Positions 2,639 through 19,564 of a stretch of 26,710 bases of DNA are shown here, in pieces. This DNA comes from Verrucomicrobiota bacterium (GTDB lineage: Bacteria; Chlamydiota; Chlamydiia; Chlamydiales; FEN-1388). Numbering within the stretch: position 1 is the stretch's first letter; every line of letters begins with the position of its first letter. The position numbers were made by a program, and so were the translations under genes. Location: contig JAFEGS010000001.1 in NCBI GenBank assembly GCA_018239705.1, positions 1 through 26,710 on the forward strand, given 5' to 3'. Under the pieces are notes generated by a model, which searched no databases, was not told where the DNA came from, and saw only the letters and a program-made list of their open reading frames with translations.

Positions 2639-4897
2639 TTTCTTGAAGAATTCCTCGTGATTTCGTTTTGGGAACTCGATACCATACTGCAGGCTTCTCT
2701 GATAGGCTTCCAGTGTCTTTTGAATCACAAACTGTTCATAGCTGCATAGGTCTGCCTGTCTTGTGGCTCTATCGACGATAAAATCTACAATCAGGCAGTT
2801 AAGGGGCTCACTAGCTTGAAGAGAAAAACATTGGCATGGAAGCGTTTTGAAATGGTCGAGAAGATGATTAGAAGCCTCTCGCTGCTTGTCCCCCCCTCCC
2901 CATAGCGCATAAGAGAGTAGATGGAGCAGGACGGTGGTATGAGTATCTGGGTCCTGTACTCCGGAGGTGAACTTGGTCATAGCGACTTGAGTAGGTGCAG
3001 TAATAGAGCCACAGGCATAGAGGTTCGGATTCTCTTCAATTTTTCGTAGTTTGTCTGTAGCCATCTTGAGTATGGGAGAAGTTTCTTCCCACTTGGGTAT
3101 TGTAGCCGGGAATTGCTGCTCTATTTTGGCAAGCTGCACAATGCTTTTGGAATAGCACTGGATAAAGAGATTGTGGCAGCGGCTAGATTCACACACGTCA
3201 ATAAGCTCAAAAAGGGAGACGAGAGAGCTGAGGATGTCATTTCCGAATTGGCGCTGATAGGCACTATAGAGCTCTAAAAAAGAGGGTGTATTCTTACCTA
3301 CTGCATGTATATGGTCCATGTACTGTGCATTCTTACTCAGTGCGTACAGCGCCATATCGAGCTTAAGATACGAGCGGTTCTTTGAAAAATAGAACCATTC
3401 AGTAATCTCTCGTGTAAGGTATTGTATAATGCGGGTGAGGAGCAGGCTTTCGCTTAAACGTTCTATACTCTTTTTTCTATTGCCTTGTACAATAGCAAGC
3501 CATATCTCTTCATCTCTGTTGCACTGGGTAATTACTTGCAAACCAACTCGTGAGAGCAATGTCTCGAGGCTCTTGGTAATTTTGTGATTAAATTGTAGTA
3601 GCTGCTTGTCGTCTTCTACATAGAGTAGAAGTGCCTGTGAGACTGAATGAGCAGCACTGAAGAGGGCTTGGATTTTTTTTGAGGTGTTAATGCTATTGTG
3701 GGGAATAGAAAGAAAATCGCATGTATGCCTTATGGAGGCGATAGTTTTTTCATTTGCTGTGGATATATTGGCAAAAATGTGTGAGAGGTTGAATCGGATG
3801 TCCTGAATGAAGGCTGAAAGCCGAGCTGCGTAATTGAGCCCAGTACTTGTCTGCTGTGAATGCATGATTTGATAAAAGGCTGCTCGAATGTCTTCTAAAG
3901 CCTTTTCGATGATGGAGAGAGGTCCTTCGAAATAGGCACGAAAGAGATCTTCATTTTGTGTAATTTCTGCAAATTCCTTCCCTCGGTTTTCATATAGTCC
4001 TTGTAGGCAGTCCTGCACATCTTCATCGAGGATTTGAAGATCCATTGCCAGTTTTTTCATATAATTGATGAGTGGGGCGGTTAGCTCATTTCCCCAATTT
4101 ATTATAAAATATTCTGTAACGCTTGCGCCTGTTCCAGTGCGAAAGGCAAGATCCTCTCTCAGAGATGCATTGCTGTCCGTAGCTCGCTGTTTTCTCTTCG
4201 TAGTAATATCTGGAAGTGCATCCTGCCTTGTATAATTTCGTTCCTCTGTGCTTTTAATTTCATCCAATTTACTTATAACCAATTCATTATTGATATGTTC
4301 TTTGGCTAGTTTTTCCTCTTGATCGCACTGTTCCATTTGCTCATGAATGCGCTTTATATTCTCTTTCAGGTGAGGGTCTTCCAGAGTGTGGAGGAGCAGC
4401 TTTTGCTCTTTTAATGTAGCTTTAAAAGTGTCTGTTACACGTCCTTTTTTAGCCAGTTTATCATACTCTAAAACAGATACCTTATAGAGTATTACAGCCT
4501 GTGAATAGGCTGGACTATTAAGGAGTAGTGCGAGCTGTTCTACTTTGGTTTTTATCATTTGAAGTTTCAGGCTCAAGGGAAAAAGCTGCTGCATACTTGG
4601 GCAGAGAGCCTGCAGGGGCAAAAAGGGAAGCTGTTCATAGAGTTTGCACATGTCTAAGTTGCAAGTGGTTAAAGTCTCGATGGGTGCCGCAAGTTCAGTT
4701 TTCAGCTCCTCATGCCTTTCAAGTATTCTTTTGGATGGAGCTGCGAAGGAATAGATGCTTGCTGCAATTTCATTTATATTTTTTTCTACAGCTTCTATCA
4801 ACTGATTGATTTCGTTCAACTTATTGAAAAATATTTGTTCATCTGGTGTGTCTATATCTGTTTCATTTGTCAAAAAGTAGCGAGGAGTTATTTGCAT
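2618..4897 (-). CDS. Hypothetical large helical/coiled-coil protein (paralog 2 of tandem pair)
   Basis: 759-aa ORF alignable by eye to 4863..6590; no recognisable domain. Confidence 0.8.
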   Translation of the reverse strand: MQITPRYFLTNETDIDTPDEQIFFNKLNEINQLIEAVEKNINEIAASIYSFAAPSKRILERHEELKTELAAPIETLTTCNLDMCKLYEQLPFLPLQALCPSMQQLFPLSLKLQMIKTKVEQLALLLNSPAYSQAVILYKVSVLEYDKLAKKGRVTDTFKATLKEQKLLLHTLEDPHLKENIKRIHEQMEQCDQEEKLAKEHINNELVISKLDEIKSTEERNYTRQDALPDITTKRKQRATDSNASLREDLAFRTGTGASVTEYFIINWGNELTAPLINYMKKLAMDLQILDEDVQDCLQGLYENRGKEFAEITQNEDLFRAYFEGPLSIIEKALEDIRAAFYQIMHSQQTSTGLNYAARLSAFIQDIRFNLSHIFANISTANEKTIASIRHTCDFLSIPHNSINTSKKIQALFSAAHSVSQALLLYVEDDKQLLQFNHKITKSLETLLSRVGLQVITQCNRDEEIWLAIVQGNRKKSIERLSESLLLTRIIQYLTREITEWFYFSKNRSYLKLDMALYALSKNAQYMDHIHAVGKNTPSFLELYSAYQRQFGNDILSSLVSLFELIDVCESSRCHNLFIQCYSKSIVQLAKIEQQFPATIPKWEETSPILKMATDKLRKIEENPNLYACGSITAPTQVAMTKFTSGVQDPDTHTTVLLHLLSYALWGGGDKQREASNHLLDHFKTLPCQCFSLQASEPLNCLIVDFIVDRATRQADLCSYEQFVIQKTLEAYQRSLQYGIEFPKRNHEEFFKKLNNDTI

Positions 4898-9457: not shown

Positions 9458-9775
9458 ATGTCGATTGTCAATCCCCTTTCATCAAACCCTTTACCCCCTG
9501 TTGATCCGGGTCAGGTTGTGCAGGTGCACGGCCAGGCAGGAGGAAAGCTTAAAACTGACGTCCACTCACCCTCGACGCAGTCGCAAGTCGTGCAGCAGTC
9601 AGCTGCAGTACTTCGTCCTGATGGAATTCTCGAATTCGAGCAAATTTTACCCGAAAAGACTGAAACCGATAAACATAAAGACGAAAAAGATGAAGATTCT
9701 GAGCAAAGGAAACAGAAGCGTCCATCTCAGCGCGCCCAATGGCGCCGCGCTCGTGACCAAGGCCAAAGAATCTAG
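9458..9775 (+). CDS. Small hypothetical protein (105 aa; gene A), S/P/Q-rich N-terminus and acidic-then-basic C-terminus
   Basis: Strong SD and -10 upstream. The 3' half is conserved at protein level in the diverged copy at 11251-11450, with mostly third-position changes, which supports real coding. Confidence 0.8.
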   Translation: MSIVNPLSSNPLPPVDPGQVVQVHGQAGGKLKTDVHSPSTQSQVVQQSAAVLRPDGILEFEQILPEKTETDKHKDEKDEDSEQRKQKRPSQRAQWRRARDQGQRI

Positions 9776-9798
9776 CTCATTGACGTAAATTTTTCTAA
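9599..9798 (+). repeat. Direct repeat A (200 bp), pairs with 11251..11450
   Basis: Ungapped manual alignment, 25 mismatches in 200 bp (about 87%). Confidence 0.95.
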
Positions 9799-9865
9799 AA
9801 TCGTTCAATTTATCCCTGTGATTTTTCTAAAATCCTGGACTTTATCCCTGTGATTTTTCTAAAAT
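9789..9865 (+). repeat. 32-bp-period tandem repeat upstream of the AAA_14 ATPase
   Basis: ATTTTTCTAAAAT at 9789, 9821 and 9853; TTTATCCCTGTG precedes the second and third copies. Confidence 0.9.
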
Positions 9866-9884
9866 TGTGAAAAAAGGGGGGATA

Positions 9885-11195
9885 ATGCGTAGAGATCACT
9901 TGAACTTTCTAAGGCAATGGAGAAATGACCCGATTAGGGTTCCTTTGATGATTCGCGGGGCGAGGCAGGTGGGTAAATCATGGCTCGTTACAGCCTTTGG
10001 GGAAGAGTTTGAACATTTTATATCAATCAATTTTGAAAAGGATAAGAGAGTCCACGCTCTATTTCCAGACCACATCGATATACATAAAACGCTTGAAACC
10101 TTGCGTGCCTATACCAAGATCCCTACTATTTCAGGAAAGACACTTCTTTTCTTAGATGAAATCCAAGAGTGCCCCAATGCGATACGGTACTTACGCTACT
10201 TCAAAGAGGAGCTTCCTGAACTTCATGTGATCGCTGCAGGATCGCTTTTGGAGTTTACATTAGAGAAATTGGGTGTTGCTGTAGGTAGGATCGATTATCT
10301 GTTTCTCTATCCTCTCTCTTTTATGGAATTTTTGACTGCTCTCAATCGAGATGATCTTCGAGAGGCCATTACAAACAAGAACATAGATGCTGCATCACAT
10401 GAGGTGCTTTTAGAGCATCTTAAAAACTATATGTGGCTTGGAGGAATGCCAGCGGTTGTTAGTACCTGGATCCAACATCGCGACTTTATCCTTTGTCAGC
10501 GTATCCAGGATCGCATTATTGGCAATTATGAGGATGATTTCCAAAAGTATGCCAAAAAACATCAGATCGAAACGTTAGGCAAGGTGTTTCGCTCGATTGG
10601 AAAGCAATTGGGAAAAAAATTTCAGTATATCAATGTTGACAATGACATGAAAACCTATCCCATCAAGCAGGGGCTCCATTTATTAATCAGAGCAGGTGTC
10701 GCTCATCTCTGTTACCATACCTCAGGGCATGTCTATCCTTTAGAGGCTGAAAGTAATGAGAAAAAGTTTAAAGTCTATCTCTTTGATATAGGTATTTCAC
10801 ATCGTCTCTTAGGATTAGATTTAGCCGAATGGGTCACCTCTCCGCTGCACATAGACTATTTAGGTGAAAGTGCTGAACAGCTCGTAGCCCAAGAGCTCAT
10901 TGCTTACGGCAACCCTTCAAAACGTGGTGAAATTTACTATTGGCACGTTGAGTCGAAATCAGGCAATGCAGAAGTAGATTTTATTGATGTTAAGGAAAAT
11001 AAGATTGTGCCAATTGAAGTGAAATCTGGAGTCAAAGGTGGGATGAAAAGCCTAAATGTATTTTTTGAAACGCATCCCAAGGCGACCTATGGCGTGAAAA
11101 TTTCTGAAATGCCATTTTCCCGTCATGGTAATTTGGAAGAAATTCCCTTGTATGCAGTAGCCAGTTGGAAAAAAAACCAAAGCTCAGGTTATTAA
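9885..11195 (+). CDS. ATP-binding protein, AAA_14 plus DUF4143-like C-terminal domain
   Basis: Walker A GARQVGKS, Walker B LFLDEIQ, IAAGSLL, YMWLGGMPAVV and C-terminal EVDF...IVPIEVKSG (PD-(D/E)XK-like). ATG 9885 preferred over the track start at 9867. Confidence 0.9.
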   Translation: MRRDHLNFLRQWRNDPIRVPLMIRGARQVGKSWLVTAFGEEFEHFISINFEKDKRVHALFPDHIDIHKTLETLRAYTKIPTISGKTLLFLDEIQECPNAIRYLRYFKEELPELHVIAAGSLLEFTLEKLGVAVGRIDYLFLYPLSFMEFLTALNRDDLREAITNKNIDAASHEVLLEHLKNYMWLGGMPAVVSTWIQHRDFILCQRIQDRIIGNYEDDFQKYAKKHQIETLGKVFRSIGKQLGKKFQYINVDNDMKTYPIKQGLHLLIRAGVAHLCYHTSGHVYPLEAESNEKKFKVYLFDIGISHRLLGLDLAEWVTSPLHIDYLGESAEQLVAQELIAYGNPSKRGEIYYWHVESKSGNAEVDFIDVKENKIVPIEVKSGVKGGMKSLNVFFETHPKATYGVKISEMPFSRHGNLEEIPLYAVASWKKNQSSGY

Positions 11196-11254
11196 GAAGC
11201 GCTCTATTGCCTTGAAGCAAGCATCAGGCTGTTCCACAAAAGGAAAATGGTCAG
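11184..11254 (-). pseudogene. Orphan 3' fragment (B') of an alpha/beta-hydrolase allele; repeat of 12018..12079
   Basis: Translates to HFPFVEQPDACFKAIERFLIT*, versus HFPFVEQPDACFKAIEGFLRIL* in 12006..12860; 58/62 nt identical over 11193-11254. Confidence 0.9.
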
Positions 11255-11450
11255 CTGCTCCACTTCGCCTTGATGGAATTCTCGAATTTGAGCAAATTCT
11301 CCCAGAAAAGACTGAGCCTGAAAAACACGACGAAGAAAAAGACGAAGATTCTGAGCAAAAGAAACAAAAGCGTCCATCGCAGCGCGCCCAATGGCGCCGC
11401 GCTCGCGACCAAGGTCAAAGAATATAGCTCATTGACGCAAATTTTTCTAA
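11251..11450 (+). pseudogene. 5'-truncated copy (A') of the 105-aa gene A
   Basis: Encodes SAAPLRLDGILEFEQILPEKTE...RAQWRRARDQGQRI*; lacks the N-terminal half, promoter and SD. Confidence 0.9.
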
Positions 11451-11483
11451 TTTGGTAGACTGGCCTGTATCAAGGGCTAAGAT

Positions 11484-11777
11484 ATGATATTTCCCCAGAC
11501 GCTTATTTTTCGTGTCCACGCGATCAAACGAATGCTCGAAAGGGATATAGCGGTTGAGGACGTAAAACAAGTATTGCTTGATCCCAAAATACTAAAAGAA
11601 TATGTTGACGACAGGCCCTACCCAAGCTATTTGGTACTGGGTTGGAAGGATCGCCGTCCTATCCACCTAGTTGTTGCTCTAAATAACGAAGCGAATGAGA
11701 CTATAATTGTTACGGCATACGAACCTTCTATCGTAGAATGGAATGAAGGTTTTAACACAAGAAAGGCAAAAGAATGA
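11484..11777 (+). CDS. DUF4258-like putative toxin of a type II TA pair
   Basis: IFRVHAIKRMLERDI...EY.DDRPYPSYLVLG...IHLVVA...IVTAYEP pattern; ATGA overlap with the next gene. Confidence 0.85.
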   Translation: MIFPQTLIFRVHAIKRMLERDIAVEDVKQVLLDPKILKEYVDDRPYPSYLVLGWKDRRPIHLVVALNNEANETIIVTAYEPSIVEWNEGFNTRKAKE

Positions 11778-12001
11778 AATGTGTTATTTGTAAAGATGGC
11801 AATACTGAAAAAGGCTTCACAAGTGTTACGCTAGAGCGTAATGGCATGTTATTTGTGGTAAAACAGGTGCCTGCCCACATCTGCACAAATTGTGGAGAGG
11901 CCTATATTGATGAAAAAATCACTTCAGCGATCCTAGAAATGGCTCAGAGAGCCTTTTTTGGTGGAGTCCAACTTGAAATTTGCTCATATAAAGCTGCATA
12001 A
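11774..12001 (+). CDS. YgiT-type (MqsA N-domain-like) zinc-finger protein, putative antitoxin
   Basis: MKCVICKDG...VKQVPAHICTNCGEAY (two CxxC motifs); 75 aa, no HTH. Confidence 0.88.
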   Translation: MKCVICKDGNTEKGFTSVTLERNGMLFVVKQVPAHICTNCGEAYIDEKITSAILEMAQRAFFGGVQLEICSYKAA

Positions 12002-12005
12002 CTCG

Positions 12006-12860
12006 CTAGAGAATGCGTAAGAAGCCCTCTATTGCCTTGAAGCAAGCATCGGGCTGCTCCACAAAAGGAAAATGGCCAGACTGCTCTATTTTGACAAGAG
12101 TGGAGGAGGGTATCACCGTATGGAGATATTCAACAGAGGCAAGGGGAATGGGGTCTACATCTCCATGGATGATCATCGTAGGACATCGTAAAGCCCGTAG
12201 GCTGTCCGTTACATCATAGGGATTCATAAAAATGGCTTCTTTAAAAATATCCCATACCTTAAAGCCTCTCAGAGCCTCCTGTTGAGACTTCCAAAGATTG
12301 AGCTTATGGACGTTGTCAGGGCTGTGCATGTAGATCTGGTAGACAATGGTAAGCCATTTTTTCACAAGCTCTGGATCGCCCGCTCGATAGAGCTCAGAGG
12401 CTTCGATTTTTTGCAGCTCTTCTTGATAAGGGGTAAGTCTTTTTGCAAGCTCGGAAAAAAAGAGGGGCAAATCATCAGATTTTCCCGGCATAGGTGAGAG
12501 TAAGACCAGCTTGTCAACCGCTTCAGGATAGACACAGGCATAGTGGAAGGCTAAAAAGGCGCCCCAAGAATGGCCAAGCAAAGAAATTTTTTCTAGCCCA
12601 AGAGATGTGCGGATCGCTTCGATATCCTGAAGATAGGTTGAGAGAGTAATCTCTTCAGGGGTGATCTCTCCGGTCGATTTGCCAAGAGCTCTTTGGTCGT
12701 AGAATATGAGCTGGTTATTTTGAGCTAGGCGCTCCATGTGTGGAAGTAAGTACTCATGGGTGATAAAACCGGCTCCTCCATGTACCACAATAAGAGGATC
12801 GCCCTTGCCCATAATGCTACAAAAAAGATCGGCTCCTTTTGCCTTTACAAATGTGTGCAT
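12006..12860 (-). CDS. Alpha/beta hydrolase (proline iminopeptidase-like; gene B)
   Basis: HGGAG oxyanion motif, YDQRALGKS, GHSWG nucleophile, HGDVD acid and SGHFP His. Confidence 0.9.
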   Translation of the reverse strand: MHTFVKAKGADLFCSIMGKGDPLIVVHGGAGFITHEYLLPHMERLAQNNQLIFYDQRALGKSTGEITPEEITLSTYLQDIEAIRTSLGLEKISLLGHSWGAFLAFHYACVYPEAVDKLVLLSPMPGKSDDLPLFFSELAKRLTPYQEELQKIEASELYRAGDPELVKKWLTIVYQIYMHSPDNVHKLNLWKSQQEALRGFKVWDIFKEAIFMNPYDVTDSLRALRCPTMIIHGDVDPIPLASVEYLHTVIPSSTLVKIEQSGHFPFVEQPDACFKAIEGFLRIL

Positions 12861-12875
12861 GGGTAGAAGCTCCCT

Positions 12876-14273
12876 TTAGAATTTTCGGAAGGTGCGCTGG
12901 AAGCCAGATTGTATGACGACGGTAAGGGTGGGAGTGCCCTTTTCTTCTCCGAAGATAATGCTACGGCCCGTTTCGAGGTTGAAGAATCGATTTTCAGATT
13001 CCGGATGGAGCTTGAGCGGCTGCGTTTTCCCGATCGCTACAAGCAGGTCGCTGCCATCGAGATAGACCTGTATGTCATAGATGTCGTTTGGCTCATGTTC
13101 TGTGCCATATCTTCCTGCGTGTCGCGAAAGTGCTGAAACGGCTACTGAGGCTACTTTTTTGGTCTCTACTTTGTAGGTGGGCCAGTTGTAGACATGCGAG
13201 ATGCTGCGAAAGATTTGATCGAGCAGTATAGAGCCATTATCAGCATTGAGCATCACTACAGCACCTTTTTTGAGGTGTGGAAAATAGACGTATCCCGAGG
13301 CAAATCCATCCGTTCTTCCCTTATGGCTTATCTCTACATCGTCTGTTCCTTCGTTGTTCACAACAGGTCCTAACCCATATGGCGGGATGGCTGGCTTCAT
13401 CATGGCAGCAACCATCTTCTTGTCGAGCACCTCTTCAATGCGTAGCAAGAGTGTAGCTAAATCAGAGGGGGTTGTCCAGAGCCCAGCTGCAGCGCTCTCT
13501 GGGTAGGTCTTCCATCTGCCGGCCATCGGTTTTCCATCTCCGGGATGGGCTACTGCTGCAGTTTCGACATATTCTTTTGGCAGTGGGTAGCAAAAGGTAC
13601 TTCTCGTAAGTGCAAGCTTTTTAAAAACTACTTCGTCCATAAAGTGATGAAACGGCTTTCCTGTTACCTCTTCTACAAGCAGCTGCATGACGCAGTAGCC
13701 ACCGCCGGAGTAGGCAAATTTGGAGCCGGGAGTAAACTGTACGAGCACAGGAGGGTTATTTGCCGGCTGCTCTCCATTGAGGATTTGCTGCAAGGTAGGA
13801 AGTGGCGCCTGTTCTTTGTAGCCGTCAAATCCTATGACGTTGTAGCCGGAAGTATGGCTGAGAAGATGGCGAAGAGTAACGTCATTATTTTGCGGTTTCC
13901 ACGATACGAGCTTTTCATCTACCGGTTGGTCGAGATCGAGTAGACCCTTTTGTACAAGCGCAAGAACGCCAATAGCTGCAACCGGCTTACTTACCGATCC
14001 TGCTTGAAAAAGTGACGAGGTCTCTGCTTTTCCCTCACCGTGGGCCTGTAGTGTACCGTAGCTTCTTGCCCACTCGATGGTTCCATTATTGATAACTGCA
14101 ATGCTCACAGCGGGAACGCTGTGCTGCTTCATCGCATCATATATATTCTTTTTTGCAATCGGAGTCCCTTCGATAGCAAGGGCCTCCATAAGGCTATTTT
14201 CAACGTGGTCGATTTGCATAGGGCTGCTCTCGCAAGTAAAGGTAGCTGCAAGAAAGATGAGTAGGTACTTCAC
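12876..14273 (-). CDS. Serine hydrolase, beta-lactamase class C/AmpC-like family, probably exported
   Basis: FQAGSVSK (SxxK), LLSHTSG, FAYSGGGY and HKGRTDG; short hydrophobic N-terminus; GTG start overlaps the YitT stop. Confidence 0.9.
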   Translation of the reverse strand: MKYLLIFLAATFTCESSPMQIDHVENSLMEALAIEGTPIAKKNIYDAMKQHSVPAVSIAVINNGTIEWARSYGTLQAHGEGKAETSSLFQAGSVSKPVAAIGVLALVQKGLLDLDQPVDEKLVSWKPQNNDVTLRHLLSHTSGYNVIGFDGYKEQAPLPTLQQILNGEQPANNPPVLVQFTPGSKFAYSGGGYCVMQLLVEEVTGKPFHHFMDEVVFKKLALTRSTFCYPLPKEYVETAAVAHPGDGKPMAGRWKTYPESAAAGLWTTPSDLATLLLRIEEVLDKKMVAAMMKPAIPPYGLGPVVNNEGTDDVEISHKGRTDGFASGYVYFPHLKKGAVVMLNADNGSILLDQIFRSISHVYNWPTYKVETKKVASVAVSALSRHAGRYGTEHEPNDIYDIQVYLDGSDLLVAIGKTQPLKLHPESENRFFNLETGRSIIFGEEKGTPTLTVVIQSGFQRTFRKF

Positions 14274-15202
14274 TATTTTTGTCCCAGCGCTTTGGTGGCG
14301 ATGGCGGTGATGGGTTTCTTTTTGCGAAAAACCTTGTTCTGCTGTATCCCTGAGGAGACTTCGTGCAGGTTTTCGATAGCGATAAAGGCATTTGGGTCGA
14401 TGTTGTAGATGAGCGATTTGAGGTCGGTCAGCTGCAGACGTTCAATGATGATGTAGAGGATCTCGGTTGAAGCGCCCGAAAATCCGCCCCTTCCATACAT
14501 GATTGTCAGGCCCAGGCCCAGCTCGTGCATGATGGACTGAGAGATCTCATTCGATTTTGGAGATATCACGAGCACCGATTTTGTCTCATCGAGCCCTACG
14601 ATTACCATATCCATGATTTTAGCGACGACGATAAAGGCAATCAGAGAGAGGATCGGCGGATGCCAGTCTTGAAAGACGATGCCGGCTGTCCCAAAAACCA
14701 GGATGTTGCAGCTAAAGACTGTCTGGCCAACGGTAAATCCCATCTTTTTGTTGATGATGATGCCAAGGATTTCGGTGCCATCAAGGCATGCCCCGCCTCG
14801 GATGATCATACCCACTCCCACTCCGAGAATAGCGCCGCCAATCACCACAACTTCAAGGTTTTCTCCAACGAAGGGATGGGCGAAGATTTTTGGCATGAGG
14901 AAGAGAAAAAAGGCAAAGGAGAGTAGGGCGAGAAGGAGCTGAACAACAAAAAGTTTTCCAATAAAGCGGTAGGCGAGGTAGACAAAGGGGAGGTTGAAGA
15001 GAAGCAAAAAGAGCGGAAGCGTATCGCTACCAAACATACGCGCTGCGATCATCGCAAGGCCTACTGTGCCGCCGTCGATCAGGTTATTTGGGAGGAAGAA
15101 GATTTTAATCGCAAAAGCAGCAATGAAGGCACCCAAAAAGGTGAGGGCATAAGGAATGATTTGGGATTTTATGCCTTTGGATTGCTCGCTTGCAGTTTTC
15201 AT
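14273..15202 (-). CDS. YitT family membrane protein
   Basis: LIDGGTVGLAM, GGACLDGTEILGI and GLGLTIMYGRGGFSG. Start moved to ATG 15202 because the track extension overlaps tRNA-Asp. Confidence 0.92.
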   Translation of the reverse strand: MKTASEQSKGIKSQIIPYALTFLGAFIAAFAIKIFFLPNNLIDGGTVGLAMIAARMFGSDTLPLFLLLFNLPFVYLAYRFIGKLFVVQLLLALLSFAFFLFLMPKIFAHPFVGENLEVVVIGGAILGVGVGMIIRGGACLDGTEILGIIINKKMGFTVGQTVFSCNILVFGTAGIVFQDWHPPILSLIAFIVVAKIMDMVIVGLDETKSVLVISPKSNEISQSIMHELGLGLTIMYGRGGFSGASTEILYIIIERLQLTDLKSLIYNIDPNAFIAIENLHEVSSGIQQNKVFRKKKPITAIATKALGQK

Positions 15203-15229
15203 AAGTTGCGTATCCGCAGTGAAAAGATA

Positions 15230-15303
15230 CGCGGGAGACGGGGCTCGAACCCGCAACTTCCGCCGTGACAGGGCGGTGCTCTAACCAATTGAACTACTCC
15301 CGC
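15230..15303 (-). tRNA. tRNA-Asp (GTC)
   Basis: Acceptor GCGGGAG/CTCCCGC, anticodon arm CCGCC-CTGTCAC-GGCGG, T-loop TTCGAGC; CCA not encoded. Confidence 0.97.
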
Positions 15304-15305
15304 AA

Positions 15306-15378
15306 TGGGCGCAACAGGGCTCGAACCTATGACCGCCTGTGTGTAAGACAGGTGCTCTACCAACTGAGCTATACGCCC
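15306..15378 (-). tRNA. tRNA-Val (TAC)
   Basis: Acceptor GGGCGTA/TGCGCCC, anticodon arm CCTGT-CTTACAC-ACAGG, GGTTCGAG T-arm. Confidence 0.97.
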
Positions 15379-15503
15379 TCGTAAAATACGAAGTGCCATA
15401 AGCTTACTCAAGTCAGCGATTTTTCCACAAGAGAAAAAGGCAAATGGCCATAAAATCTCGCAGCATGCTACACTGCGACTTTTATTATTAAGGACTTAAA
15501 TAA

Positions 15504-15914
15504 ATGATCTCTTTAGCATTGCATCTGGTTGTTTGTATCGCACTCTGTGTGGGCTGTAGCACAAAATCGCCTCTCTATTTTCAGACAAAGGGAAGGGTAG
15601 TCACGAGCCAGCTGCTCGAGCATTTGGAGGATGTGCACGATCTGGATGACCTCATCGAGATTTTGCCGAGGCTACAGATGCTCTTTGATCAGCTTGTAGA
15701 CGTGATGATCGAGGCCAGGAAGTGGCAGGTAAAAGAGGGCGTAGAGTGGGGTCCAAGCGAAGAAGATGCTGCCTTAAGCGCGAGGCTATGCAGCGAATTA
15801 AACCGCATTTTTGCCATTCCTGCTGCGCGGGACCTCATTGAAAAAAGCCAGCATCGCGCCCTTGAGCGATTAGACGCTTTTGAAACAAAAGTAAACAAAA
15901 ACGCTCGAAATTAA
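15504..15914 (+). CDS. Hypothetical protein, probable lipoprotein
   Basis: Hydrophobic N-terminus ending in a lipobox-like LCVGC; helical remainder. Confidence 0.75.
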   Translation: MISLALHLVVCIALCVGCSTKSPLYFQTKGRVVTSQLLEHLEDVHDLDDLIEILPRLQMLFDQLVDVMIEARKWQVKEGVEWGPSEEDAALSARLCSELNRIFAIPAARDLIEKSQHRALERLDAFETKVNKNARN

Positions 15915-15991
15915 AAATATTACTTTATATAAATTCAATTGGAGATTATTATGAAGATATAAAAGGGCAGACTTTTTATCTGGAGGTCTGG

Positions 15992-17149
15992 ATGTCATCA
16001 CAGCAACAAGGAGGGGATCAAAAGAGCCATAGCGAGCATCACCTAAATGTGAAACGCATCGAAAAGATATCAAAAAAGAAGGGAGTGTTCTTCTCTCATG
16101 TTAGTAATTTTTTCACTTGGCTTGGAGAATTGATAACTGAAGAGGCAAAAAGTGAAGCCCAGCAGGCCGATCCTCCTATCACTCTAAAAAAATCTCACGT
16201 TATTGCTTTGACGCAGCATCACCCAGAAGAGGTGAAGAAGAGAGCGCAATCGATTTGTGAAAAGCTCAATGAATTCAAAAAGCAGCTGACCGTAAAATTT
16301 GAGGGGAATACAGGTAGTTTCGTAGGTAAATCGGTCGACACCATGATTTCCAAGGCCAGAAATATCGTGGAAAATCTGCACACACGTGATGTTGAATCGG
16401 GAGAGTTTCGCGATTTCCTCGCACAGGCGGTCGTTGAGGTTGACCTCTATTCGCAGCTCAACACCGAGTCAAAAATAAAGAAAAAAATCATCCAAGAAGC
16501 AATGGATTTTATTAAACAGTCCATCGAAAAAGATATTGCTGTTCTTACAAATTATAAATTACACTCCGTTACAGATCTCCAAATTTCTTCGGAAGAAAAA
16601 ACAGTTCATTGTTCTAAATTAGATCAATTTTTAGCTCCTGTTATTAGTGAGTTAAAAGGGATTTGCGAATATCAATTTCATTCTACAGACTTAGAGGCCT
16701 TTTTTAACTGGAAGGTAAATGTTGACGAGAGACGAGGAGCTCTTGTTGAGCTGGGGCTTCTTACGATCGATGCCTTGACTAGTCCCTTTAGAGTGCAGGA
16801 AGTGGTCGTTATAGATCTGGAGAGCGGTATATCGGAGCTCTTAGAAGCAGAGGCTGCAGCAATGGAGACGCAAGTAGAGGACTATTCGCTGTCGCTCAGT
16901 GTTTTAGCGAGCCTCGAGGACAGAGTTACCACCTGTTTTGAGCTGCTTCAGCAGATCTCTTCAGAGGATATGGAGTCCTTAAAGCTACTGCAGCAGCTAT
17001 TTTCAGATCTCAAGGTAGAGAGTGCCGGCCTTGCCGATTTTGAGGCCGAAAGCCCAAGCATCCAGAAGGGCTTTCAATCGCTTCAAGAGTCCATCCAGAA
17101 GGCAGATGACCTGCTTCAAGCTAAAATGAATCCAAATTCCTTCCTCTAG
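15992..17149 (+). CDS. Hypothetical helical/coiled-coil protein
   Basis: 385-aa ORF; GGAGG SD upstream; polar low-complexity N-terminus (MSSQQQGGDQKSHSEHH). Confidence 0.8.
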   Translation: MSSQQQGGDQKSHSEHHLNVKRIEKISKKKGVFFSHVSNFFTWLGELITEEAKSEAQQADPPITLKKSHVIALTQHHPEEVKKRAQSICEKLNEFKKQLTVKFEGNTGSFVGKSVDTMISKARNIVENLHTRDVESGEFRDFLAQAVVEVDLYSQLNTESKIKKKIIQEAMDFIKQSIEKDIAVLTNYKLHSVTDLQISSEEKTVHCSKLDQFLAPVISELKGICEYQFHSTDLEAFFNWKVNVDERRGALVELGLLTIDALTSPFRVQEVVVIDLESGISELLEAEAAAMETQVEDYSLSLSVLASLEDRVTTCFELLQQISSEDMESLKLLQQLFSDLKVESAGLADFEAESPSIQKGFQSLQESIQKADDLLQAKMNPNSFL

Positions 17150-17163
17150 AAATTAATCCTAGC

Positions 17164-17448
17164 ATGCGCTGCACGTTTGTATGCAACATAGTCATCAAAG
17201 TCGAGAGTGTGGTGCATGTCTATCAAGGCAAAACACGAGGGACCATTGTTTCACCCAGGGGAGACTGTTTTGGTTTTGGCAAGTACTTTTTGCTTGATGG
17301 GACAGACAAGACGCTCGGTGAATACATGGATCCAGAGTATAACGCTCGATCGCTTGCTATTCGAAATTTCAAAGAAAAGAAGCCATTTACCACACTGCCT
17401 ATGTTAGCAGTGTGGAATGGTGCGTTTCAGCGGAAGGATTTTGTTTAA
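17164..17448 (+). CDS. Doubtful short ORF or decayed gene remnant
   Basis: 94-aa ORF filling the gap; no SD and no recognisable motif. Confidence 0.25.
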   Translation: MRCTFVCNIVIKVESVVHVYQGKTRGTIVSPRGDCFGFGKYFLLDGTDKTLGEYMDPEYNARSLAIRNFKEKKPFTTLPMLAVWNGAFQRKDFV

Positions 17449-17464
17449 CTCTCCATTGTCCATG

Positions 17465-17497
17465 CCCTTGCCTGACCTATTTGGACTCCGGCAAGGG
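17465..17497. terminator. GC-rich hairpin between convergent ORFs (possible terminator)
   Basis: CCCTTGCC/GGCAAGGG 8-bp stem with a 17-nt loop; no U-tract. Confidence 0.3.
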
Positions 17498-17510
17498 GGT
17501 CGGAGGGAGG

Positions 17511-18968
17511 TTAACAAAATAAATCCTCCAGCACTAGTTCATTATGAATAAGCTCGGTTGAATATTCGTTTTTTTGCAGGCCAAAAGGCGTAATGAACGT
17601 TATAAAGATGGTTTTTGTGGTTTTGGTCACTTCCCGAAAAACTCTAATCTTTGCTTCTATTTCTTTTGCATAGCTCTTTGTAATAGCAAACAAACTATTA
17701 CAAAATTTTATCTCGAATATATTAATGCAATCATCTTTTCTATCAAGAAGTAAATCTATTTGCACACCAATTTCTGATTTATCCTTAGGTTTATAGGCCC
17801 ATTGAGATTCCGTTGTAAGTAATGCAGAAATTCCTAGTGCTTTTTTAATCTGTGGGATATGTTTGAAACAGAGGCTTTCAAAAGCGTATCCAGCCCATGT
17901 TTTCCAGCGTGGTTCGCTTTGCATCTTTAACCAGTACTCGCTGTCATGTCCCATGAGTACACCAGATTTTACTTCTTCAATCCATGAGAGATAAAAATAA
18001 GAATATTCATCCACCAGCCACAGGCGCTTGTTCTTTGCCTTCTTCTGAAATTCAGGATTTATAGCAATAAATCCAGACTCTTCAAGTTCTTCTAATATGG
18101 CTGTAGATTGCCCGCCAGTTGGCATATTGAGCTTTTCATAGAGCTCAAGTTTTGAAACCCCTCCCTTCTTTGCTGCGAGAGCTCTCACGATTTCTATATG
18201 TTTTGAGGGGGAGTCGAATAGAGAGTAATATAAATTAGTAAACTCAGGGACCAAGGGGCCTTGCGAAATAAAACAGAGTCGATTAATGCTTTGGGCTGCC
18301 GATTCTCCAGGGTGCACGTAGGTTAAATACTTAGCAACTCCTCCAAAACACATATAAAGCTCTGCAACCAGCTTATGAGAAAGGGTAACTCCTTGTGATT
18401 GGAGAAATTTCATTGATTCGTCTAGTGTGAATGCATTGAGCTTTATAACTTCTGTTAATCTCCCATATAGGCCACCTTTATTATTGATGATCTTCTTAAT
18501 AATCCAATTTGCGGCAGATCCGCAAACAATTAAAATAACATTGCGAGCTTGAGATAGGTACTGATTCCAAAAATATTCTAACGCTTCTAGAAAGCCTGAA
18601 CATTTTGAAGCAAGCCAGGGAAGTTCATCAAAGAATAAAATTACTTTCTTTGATGGATCGATTTTGCCTACTGCTTCCTGCAGCGTAAAGAGTGCATCGT
18701 CCCAGCTTGTGGGCGGTTTTTCAGTATGAGATATTTCAAATTTTTGCTTTAGCACACGATAAAATTTCTGAATTTGAGAGCGCTTTGTGCCATTTCTTGT
18801 GCCAGTAAAAGAGAAAAAGGTTCCCTTGTCTTTAAAGAACTCTTGAATAAGGTAGGTCTTGCCTACTCGACGCCTGCCATAAATAGCCAGAAATTCGGGA
18901 TTTTCAGACCTAAGGAGTCTCTGAAGCTTTTCTATCTCCCGTTCTCTTCCAAATATTCGAGCTACCAT
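17511..18968 (-). CDS. ATP-binding protein: archaeal-type ATPase, winged helix and C-terminal PD-(D/E)XK-like (DUF234-like) domain
   Basis: IFGREREI, Walker A GRRRVGKT, Walker B LFFDELPW, CGS; central IVRALA...LYEKL...AILEELEESGFI (wHTH-like); GYAFE..C and QIDLLLD...IFEIKF. Confidence 0.9.
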   Translation of the reverse strand: MVARIFGREREIEKLQRLLRSENPEFLAIYGRRRVGKTYLIQEFFKDKGTFFSFTGTRNGTKRSQIQKFYRVLKQKFEISHTEKPPTSWDDALFTLQEAVGKIDPSKKVILFFDELPWLASKCSGFLEALEYFWNQYLSQARNVILIVCGSAANWIIKKIINNKGGLYGRLTEVIKLNAFTLDESMKFLQSQGVTLSHKLVAELYMCFGGVAKYLTYVHPGESAAQSINRLCFISQGPLVPEFTNLYYSLFDSPSKHIEIVRALAAKKGGVSKLELYEKLNMPTGGQSTAILEELEESGFIAINPEFQKKAKNKRLWLVDEYSYFYLSWIEEVKSGVLMGHDSEYWLKMQSEPRWKTWAGYAFESLCFKHIPQIKKALGISALLTTESQWAYKPKDKSEIGVQIDLLLDRKDDCINIFEIKFCNSLFAITKSYAKEIEAKIRVFREVTKTTKTIFITFITPFGLQKNEYSTELIHNELVLEDLFC

Positions 18969-18986
18969 AGCCCTACCCTCTTTTTA

Positions 18987-19084
18987 GAGTTTTAGCCAAA
19001 TCTCATAAAATAAGACACATTCGGCTAAAACTCTTAAGACTTTCAGCCGAATCTTCCATTTTAACCGAGATTCGGCTAAATCTC
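18987..19084. repeat. Array R1: two 15-17-15 inverted-repeat units with a 51-bp period, 19 nt upstream of the ATPase start
   Basis: Half-site consensus GAGTTTTAGCCGAAT: forward at 18987 and 19038, reverse at 19019 and 19070. Confidence 0.9.
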
Positions 19085-19308
19085 AAGCGATTTTTATCGT
19101 TCCAGAGAGTTGGTACATGAGTTCATCGAGGCTTACAAAGGAAACAGAGACTCCATCATATTCTCTACTCTTTCGATCCAGTACTTTCTCTTAATCAGAT
19201 GCTGCTGCATGACAACTCCAGTTTCGTTTAGTAGCACTAAGCGAAACTGTACCTTGCAAATAGTTAAGAGGAGATTGCTTAAAGGCTAAAATGAATCCTC
19301 AGCAACCC

Positions 19309-19385
19309 GAGTTTTAGCCGAATCTCATAAAACAAGACACATTCGGCTAAAACTCTCATGAGTTTCAGCCGAATCTACAATTTTA
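19309..19385. repeat. Array R2: direct copy of 18987..19063
   Basis: 70/77 nt identical by manual alignment; perfect 15-bp inverted repeat at 19309-19323 and 19341-19355, third half-site at 19360. Confidence 0.92.
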
Positions 19386-19564
19386 CGGCTCTCTCGTTTG
19401 CGTACTTCTGTCAATAATCGAATCTCCGAGCCATCGGGTGCAAGATAGTGGTAGGAAATGGGAATATCTCCCTCGCGATACGATTGGGGGATGTGCTCTT
19501 CGGTATGCCCAAAGATAAGGGGTAAGGAGAGGGCTAAACTCGCAAAAAATATTTTCCAATACAT
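19325..19564 (-). pseudogene. 3'-truncated cupin-domain gene with signal peptide, interrupted at array R2
   Basis: YLAPDGSEIRLL matches the N-terminal motif I recall for a small cupin family. The expected His/Glu cupin motifs are absent, and the last about 20 codons are read through R2. Confidence 0.6.

Follow-up and report, generated by a model that had tools for sequence, protein, structure and literature searches.

The stretch of DNA analysed here, called the window in the following, comprises 26,710 nucleotides (positions 1 to 26,710 of contig JAFEGS010000001.1, assembly GCA_018239705.1) of a Verrucomicrobiota bacterium that GTDB places in the Chlamydiales (FEN-1388). Two genes of the window, here named gene 1 and gene 2, code for P-loop ATPases with a putative C-terminal nuclease domain and match the PADLOC families PDC-S01 and PDC-S27 (S01 and S27 for short). 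Directly upstream of each of them a repeat array is found. The coordinates of the genes, the arrays and the flanking repeats are given in Table 1.

Table 1. Positions of the two genes, their repeat arrays, promoter-like sites and flanking repeats in the window.
Feature	Coordinates	Strand	Description
Left flank A	9598-9798		Repeated at 11250-11450 (A'), 88% identity; homology stops inside the first box
S01 array	9789-9865	+	Partial box 9789-9801; full 25-nt boxes TTTATCCCTGTGATTTTTCTAAAAT at 9809-9833 and 9841-9865; period 32
Promoter-like site, gene 1	9836-9865	+	TGGACT-18-TAAAAT; sigma-70-like; spacer and -10 within box 2
Gene 1	9885-11195	+	436 aa; ATG 9885, stop 11193-11195; PDC-S01; AAA_14 and DUF4143
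Right flank B'	11193-11254		Copy of 12018-12079 (3' end of a hydrolase gene), 94% identity; starts at the gene 1 stop codon
Gene 2	17511-18968	-	485 aa; PDC-S27; ATPase_2; DUF234 below threshold
S27 array R1	18987-19084	-	Half-sites d 18987-19001, c 19019-19033, b 19038-19052, a 19070-19084
Promoter-like site, gene 2	19058-19086	-	TTGAGA-17-TAAAAT; -35 overlaps half-site a; -10 in the a-b spacer
R2	19309-19385	-	Orphan second copy of half-sites b-c-d; 77 nt, 91% identical to R1, 322 bp upstream

For the array of gene 1, Tandem Repeats Finder reports a period of 32 with 2.4 copies, 91% matches and a score of 126, and the copies were confirmed by a repeat search. The 24-nt box TTATCCCTGTGATTTTTCTAAAAT, present at 9810-9833 and 9842-9865, has no other site in the 2.44-Mb genome at up to three mismatches. 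The array ends 19 nt before the ATG. The promoter-like site is the single hit of a consensus scan, compared with 0.4 expected in shuffled sequences.

The array of gene 2 (R1) consists of four 15-nt half-sites with the consensus ATTCGGCTAAAACTC, which alternate in orientation and are separated by gaps of 17, 4 and 17 nt. It can be described as two 47-bp units placed 4 nt apart, each unit being made up of two inverted arms that flank a 17-nt spacer, with an arm offset of 32 and a period of 51. Between the end of R1 and the ATG lie 18 nt, and the promoter-like site agrees with the consensus at 10 of 12 positions. At no or one mismatch every copy of the half-site in the genome is located at the gene 2 locus, in R1 or R2. 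Both arrays of the window are therefore unique to their gene in this genome, and both overlap promoter-like hexamers, which are consensus matches only. An orthologue with 84% identity (L314) keeps the half-site sequence and both units with their 32-bp offset, including the spacer bearing TAAAAT; its two units come in the opposite order to those of gene 2 and are 14 nt apart, as against 4 nt at gene 2, a difference of about one helical turn. The palindrome formed by half-sites b and c was also considered as the unit of the S27 array and was rejected, since the comparison with L314 identifies the arm pair around the 17-nt spacer as the conserved unit.

The surroundings of R2 show some features of their own. 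R2 abuts a short truncated open reading frame (ORF; 19328-19564), the identity of which as a cupin was not confirmed by Pfam. The b-c palindrome of R2, followed by GTGTCTTGTT (19341-19374, minus strand), scores as an intrinsic-terminator-like hairpin, and this predicted hairpin could end transcription of the truncated upstream ORF. The interval between R1 and R2, a 245-bp piece (19086-19308), has a 14-nt inverted repeat at 19219-19249 just upstream of a 25-codon ORF. That this interval is the remnant of an S01 or S27 gene was considered and rejected, as tblastn of all ORFs of the genome gave noise only.

The product of gene 1 matches the PDC-S01 model PDLC04786 end to end (residues 1-431, E 2.8e-131), and its Pfam matches to AAA_14 (86 bits) and DUF4143 (106 bits) both exceed the cut-off. 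The product of gene 2 likewise matches the PDC-S27 model PDLC04984 over its whole length (residues 4-484, E 4.1e-178) and contains ATPase_2 (69.9 bits, cut-off 33.2). An earlier reading of the window made from the letters alone, the sequence-only reading, had used the label ATPase_2/DUF234; the DUF234 match, on the C-terminal half of gene 2 (18.7 bits, E 0.0024), stays under the Pfam cut-off of 22.5. The same reading had assigned a (D/E)xD...(I/V)E(V/I)K motif to both proteins. This is correct for gene 1 (E363-V-D365...E378-V-K380); in gene 2 (Q-I-D404...E418-I-K420) the ExK part is present, whereas the first part is xID and not (D/E)xD. Among 72 sequences of the gene 1 family G30-K31 and D91-E92 (Walker A and B) and E378-x-K380 are invariant and E363 and D365 nearly so; among 30 orthologues of gene 2 the same holds for GRRRVGKT, DE and D404...E418-x-K420.

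AlphaFold (AF2) models of both proteins, with a predicted local distance difference test score (pLDDT) of 95 for gene 1 and 91 for gene 2, have a common domain order of P-loop ATPase, helical lid, winged helix and alpha/beta PD-(D/E)xK nuclease. With the first three domains of gene 1, the top Foldseek matches were 2qen, 2fna, Orc1/Cdc6 and subunits of the origin recognition complex (ORC), CED-4/Apaf-1 and Avs3, and the matches include Orc1/Cdc6 structures solved on origin DNA (2qby, 2v1u). An hhalign comparison of the gene 1 profile (72 homologues) with the gene 2 profile (30 homologues) gave 97% probability and an E of 1.2e-10 for an alignment of 354 columns that begins at residue 6 and reaches the ExK motif. 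This contradicts the former statement that the two genes are unrelated. Judged from this profile alignment, gene 1 and gene 2 are homologous and belong to one old superfamily with a predicted ORC/STAND-like ATPase, a winged helix and a PD-(D/E)xK nuclease. Because the homology extends over the full length and the domain order is the same, the design common to both genes is most simply regarded as inherited, not convergent. Nor do the genes constitute an undescribed system, as had been proposed, since both are already catalogued as PDC-S01 and PDC-S27. PDC-S01 corresponds to COG1373 (AAA_14 and DUF4143) and PDC-S27 to COG1672 (ATPase_2 and DUF234); both are PADLOC candidates for phage defence, and in the literature both are single-gene ATPases fused to a PD-(D/E)xK domain, with nothing further reported (PMC12988326, PMC3424549).

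The genome (2.44 Mb in 652 contigs, 86% complete, median contig 2.5 kb), which to judge from its relatives is probably that of an environmental chlamydia, contains about 28 S01-type and about 24 S27-type ORFs or fragments, about 52 together and roughly 2% of the ORFs. Compared with its closest paralogue, a copy is 52% identical in the median and 66% at most. The repeat score of a gene is the number of 12-mer positions between -150 and +20 of the start that belong to a direct or inverted repeat (up to one mismatch). Among 1774 other ORFs 5.5% have a score of at least 5, compared with 10/19 S01 genes (Mann-Whitney p 4e-8) and 10/16 S27 genes (p 5e-11). The enrichment over control genes, for which the sequence-only reading had suggested to look, was also found with controls having at least 100 nt of intergenic DNA (57% versus 9.2%, odds ratio 13, p 1e-9). 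Taking together the own genome, relatives and distant phyla, private repeats upstream of the gene are about 6- to 13-fold enriched in both families. The repeats of the window are real and far beyond chance. Nearly every paralogue with readable upstream DNA has its own repeats, and the sequence differs in each; the uniqueness of the paralogue 12-mers in the genome at up to one mismatch is uninformative, as about 10 chance matches are expected.

Some further observations concern the distribution of the genes. A preference of the family genes for contig ends, as a sign of strain heterogeneity, was considered and rejected: 44% versus 34% are truncated (p 0.14), and the assembly is simply very fragmented. 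Relatives of the same taxonomic family have up to 24 DUF4143 matches, and no S27 matches were found in a genus of 22 genomes sized 1.0-1.2 Mb. A gene for a protein of 445 aa on contig C255 (4440-5774, minus strand), which matches neither the S01 nor the S27 profile, is also preceded by strong direct repeats (31-bp offset, score 16).

The geometry of the arrays was then compared in relatives. For S01, 80 loci were fetched, of which 79 could be scored; they derive from Acidobacteriota, Bacteroidota, Firmicutes, Actinobacteria, Planctomycetota, Verrucomicrobia, Legionellaceae, Chlamydiae and one Methanoplasma archaeon. Repeats were found upstream of the gene in 61%, downstream in 12% and in mid-gene positions in 0% of these loci. 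The offset of the direct repeats was 32 or 33 in 48 of 52 cases and 65-66 in two more, and among 59 non-redundant IMG/VR loci it was 33 in 22 and 64-66 in 5. The sequence of the S01 boxes is lineage-specific and follows a few themes, for instance AAAAGTCGTnnGAAAAAGTGT or CCyTnnnnTTTnnnnACA, the theme to which this window belongs; runs of T and A occur in the boxes, which are AT-rich. Other sub-branches of S01, in the own genome and in relatives, show a spacing of 23 bp or have a palindrome located at the start codon.

For S27, the 74 non-redundant metagenome loci have repeats upstream in 68%, in mid-gene positions in 0% and downstream in 13%, and the offset is 51-56 in 37 of 39. It is 51-55 in all 12 relatives of the same order and 49-55 in all 8 paralogues of the own genome. 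The half-site of the orthologues with 65-66% identity is ATTCCGCTGGTTTGAT, and several S27 orthologues have half-sites that lie over a TTGAYT -35 box and come after the -10 element. Distant S27-like genes with about 25% identity (IMG/VR loci L185, L188, L191, L192, L199, L202 and L204) have a TATAAT -10 element that is immediately followed by two AAATCACGATT boxes at a distance of 15 bp from each other, which is a different geometry but the same idea.

These comparisons clarify the meaning of the 32-bp spacing that the sequence-only reading had seen at both genes. In the branch of gene 1 it is the distance at which head-to-tail boxes recur throughout the family (32-33 bp, close to three turns of the helix), and here the expected periodicity was recovered in the relatives. 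At gene 2 it is the offset from arm to arm within one 47-bp unit; the family-wide constant, and the periodicity found in the relatives instead, is 51-56 bp, about five turns. The equal value of 32 in both genes thus depends in part on the way of measuring, being a period in gene 1 and an arm offset in gene 2. The two repeat sequences are indeed unrelated, and the arrays do end 18-19 nt before the start at both genes, but this distance is not conserved in relatives.

We considered several alternatives for what reads these arrays. First, something else than the encoded protein could read the repeats as cis elements. This could be a host factor or RNA polymerase (UP-like elements or phased A-tracts), or the palindromes could act at the RNA level as terminator or attenuator hairpins. 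The AT-rich boxes with their T and A runs would fit this, as would the terminator-like b-c palindrome with its T-run (19374-19341). Yet a sequence that differs in every paralogue could not be read by a common host factor, the direct repeats of S01 cannot form hairpins, and the orthologues with 65-66% identity (L144-L146) lack the T-run behind the palindrome. Also the co-variation of the S27 half-sites with the predicted recognition helix, described next, speaks for a reader encoded by the gene itself, and we regard a foreign reader as improbable.

In the co-variation test the distance between half-site consensus sequences was compared with the distance of individual protein regions after the whole-protein distance had been removed (partial rho, permutation p). 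In S27 (75 loci) the predicted recognition helix (residues 283-297) was the only one of six regions that stood out (partial rho 0.159, p 0.002). The first two helices of the winged helix (251-282) gave 0.072 (p 0.06), the lid (181-250) 0.025 (p 0.30), the wing (298-322) 0.015 (p 0.43), the ATPase (1-180) -0.003 (p 0.49) and the nuclease (345-484) -0.051 (p 0.83). As the co-variation is specific to the predicted recognition helix, it supports that in S27 the winged helix reads the half-site. The best region of S01 was the wing (0.084, p 0.006), a result that is lost on correction for 13 tests. The two box themes of S01 divide the family into two clades, mutual information being highest for the winged helix; we give this little weight because it reflects a single evolutionary split.

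From these results we consider it likely that the arrays are self-operators, bound by the winged helix of the encoded protein and most probably serving repression. Each gene would have private binding sites within its promoter: in the branch of gene 1 boxes arranged head to tail at intervals of 32-33 bp (some three turns of the helix), and in the branch of gene 2 a lattice of inverted half-sites with a period of 51-56 bp, about five turns. In this lineage the lattice would be made of 47-bp units, the two arms of which begin 32 bp from each other and flank the promoter spacer. Docking on these sites through the winged helix, the encoded protein would repress its own promoter; it would probably do so as an oligomer that occupies one face of the DNA. 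The array and the ORF, and nothing else, would be the unit that is gained, lost and swapped, the sites travelling with the gene. As far as consensus matches define the promoters, their position relative to the arrays would be the classical arrangement for repression by occlusion. The proposal of cognate operator arrays made by the sequence-only reading is well supported in this form by the enrichment, the family-wise geometry, the predicted promoters within the arrays and the S27 co-variation. The privacy of each array to its gene, the retention of the units in L314, the winged helix that both models place between ATPase and nuclease, the Orc1/Cdc6-like fold and the homology of the families likewise speak for it.

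Several points weigh against self-operators. About 30-40% of the family genes have no repeat by the 12-mer criterion, which also mostly misses the shorter sites of the distant S27-like genes. Three of the four half-sites of gene 2 would be situated downstream of the predicted transcription start, and given the terminator-like score of the R2 copy the b-c palindrome may have a role at the RNA level. The co-variation with the helix-turn-helix (HTH) that had been expected for both families was obtained for S27 only; the 77 loci of S01 gave no helix-specific signal (recognition helix 0.031, p 0.21). Finally, partial Mantel tests such as the one used here can be inflated by shared ancestry.

The main rival to self-operators is that the arrays are primarily sites of recombination or mobility, at which the own site-specific ATPase-nuclease moves, copies or exchanges the one-gene cassette in a selfish or homing-like manner, with any regulation being secondary. 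Gene 1 and its array lie between duplicated flanks (A/A' and B/B'), and the adjoining genes are unrelated. The second copy of the slot, from A' to B, holds a DUF4258 toxin gene (11484-11777) and an antitoxin candidate (11774-12001) with a zinc ribbon; the latter has an MqsA-like Pfam match (E 8e-7, 29.6 bits versus a cut-off of 30 bits) and is a probable MqsA-like antitoxin. Judged from its flanks, the region 9598-12079 contains two versions of one slot fused in tandem, with the S01 cassette in one and the toxin-antitoxin pair in the other. Because the flanks are duplicated, it can be concluded that array and ORF alone fill the slot that is held by the toxin-antitoxin pair in the second copy, and for gene 1 the idea of a single-gene cassette therefore stands. 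Synteny and indel mapping around an S01 cassette in a related genus met a DNA identity of only about 70%, and the relatives' orthologues of the flanking hydrolase, with 42-45% identity, are too distant for defining an empty site.

Between gene 1 and gene 2, a 94-aa ORF (17164-17448) matches only positions 110-183 of the 186 positions of the Ham1 family, its C-terminal part, and seems to be a truncated gene convergent with gene 2. Elsewhere in the genome, on contig C639, the palindrome GATCACCAAATC...GATTTGGTGATC stands twice before an S27 gene (ending at 4362), and a single copy is found on contig C430, some 100 nt ahead of an S01 gene (373). The S01 gene on C430 also has its own, different inverted repeat, and the additional palindrome looks like an orphaned operator.

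Mobility would be consistent with the coincidence of cassette edges and arrays, as position 9798, where the A/A' homology ends, lies in the first box and B' begins with the stop codon, and with the duplication of the S27 array (R1, R2) around an unassignable 245-bp piece. The swapped order of the units in L314 and the orphan S27-type palindrome before the S01 gene on C430, identical to the palindrome on C639, point in the same direction. Moreover, both families are found on viral or proviral contigs of IMG/VR (49 S27 and at least 80 S01 loci), and the one published test per family showed no anti-phage activity (10.1101/2024.09.26.614923). However, neither gene of the window has a copy of its array downstream, so a two-ended cassette structure is lacking here, and the age of the paralogues, seen from their identities, excludes a recent burst. 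Regulation, in turn, directly accounts for the overlap of the arrays with promoter elements in many lineages. A transposon or insertion sequence does not describe the loci either, with arrays on the 5' side only and paralogues that are at most 66% identical. We therefore judge a primary mobility function to be unlikely.

With respect to defence, PDC-S01 has been ranked as the fourth most common prokaryotic "defence system" and PDC-S27 is also part of the core set (PMC12988326). In a published phage test one PDC-S01 and one PDC-S27 member were not among the 4/8 candidates that protected E. coli B against T7, T5 or T4 (10.1101/2024.09.26.614923). The designation of the genes as defence cassettes finds no support in our analysis, and that test was negative for one member per family. 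In the full-text literature on both families, the coverage of which is incomplete, upstream repeats, self-regulation and homology between the families were not found. A bolder thought, to which we give little credence, is that the arrays would report the private specificity of an ATP-driven oligomerising nuclease and that array and ORF would form a minimal selfish or portable unit exchanging between hot spots by means of its own sites, so that these very abundant candidates would be self-propagating or mutually competing and not antiviral.

As self-operators, the conserved, lineage-private and phased arrays would be an experimental handle, predicting the DNA specificity of the protein and an oligomer geometry of 3 and 5 turns. 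They also suggest a possible reason why clones with native promoters may stay silent in heterologous hosts. Homology and the same cis design join two catalogue entries into one superfamily, and with dozens of natural pairs of protein and site in a single genome a recognition code becomes testable.

How do the two loci compare with known systems? With the PADLOC entries PDC-S01 and PDC-S27 they share the end-to-end model match and the organization as a single gene for an ATPase with a PD-(D/E)xK domain. The papers searched treat these entries as gene families only, and the arrays described here were not found in them.

Autoregulatory operators are known from the C proteins of restriction-modification systems, from toxin-antitoxin systems and from AbiE modules. 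As in these systems, private repeated or palindromic sites lie over the promoter of a potentially toxic, horizontally moving module whose product has an HTH. In contrast to them, regulator, ATPase and nuclease would here be one polypeptide, if it binds as predicted, and the sites are distributed over 77-98 bp, spaced by 3 and 5 turns of the helix. Because of this span and these spacings an oligomer rather than a simple dimer is suggested.

Phased repeats beside an initiator gene are a feature of iterons and of the origin recognition boxes (ORB). We therefore also considered that the arrays could be iteron- or ORB-like loading sites on which the ORC-like ATPase remodels or replicates DNA, with an origin or partition-type function. 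The fold, which resembles Orc1/Cdc6 solved on origin DNA (2qby, 2v1u), would agree with this. But about 52 copies are present in one 2.4-Mb chromosome, each as a one-gene insert, the fused nuclease domain has intact catalytic residues, and there are no other replicon genes near either gene; an unwinding element was not seen, although none was specifically sought. An origin of the iteron-Rep or ORB-Orc1 type is therefore very improbable. Taken as self-operators, the arrays and their genes share with archaeal Orc1/Cdc6-ORB and plasmid Rep-iteron systems the AAA+, lid and winged-helix architecture and the phased repeats beside the own gene. They differ from them in the fused nuclease, in the dozens of copies per chromosome and in the arrays coinciding with the promoter of the gene.

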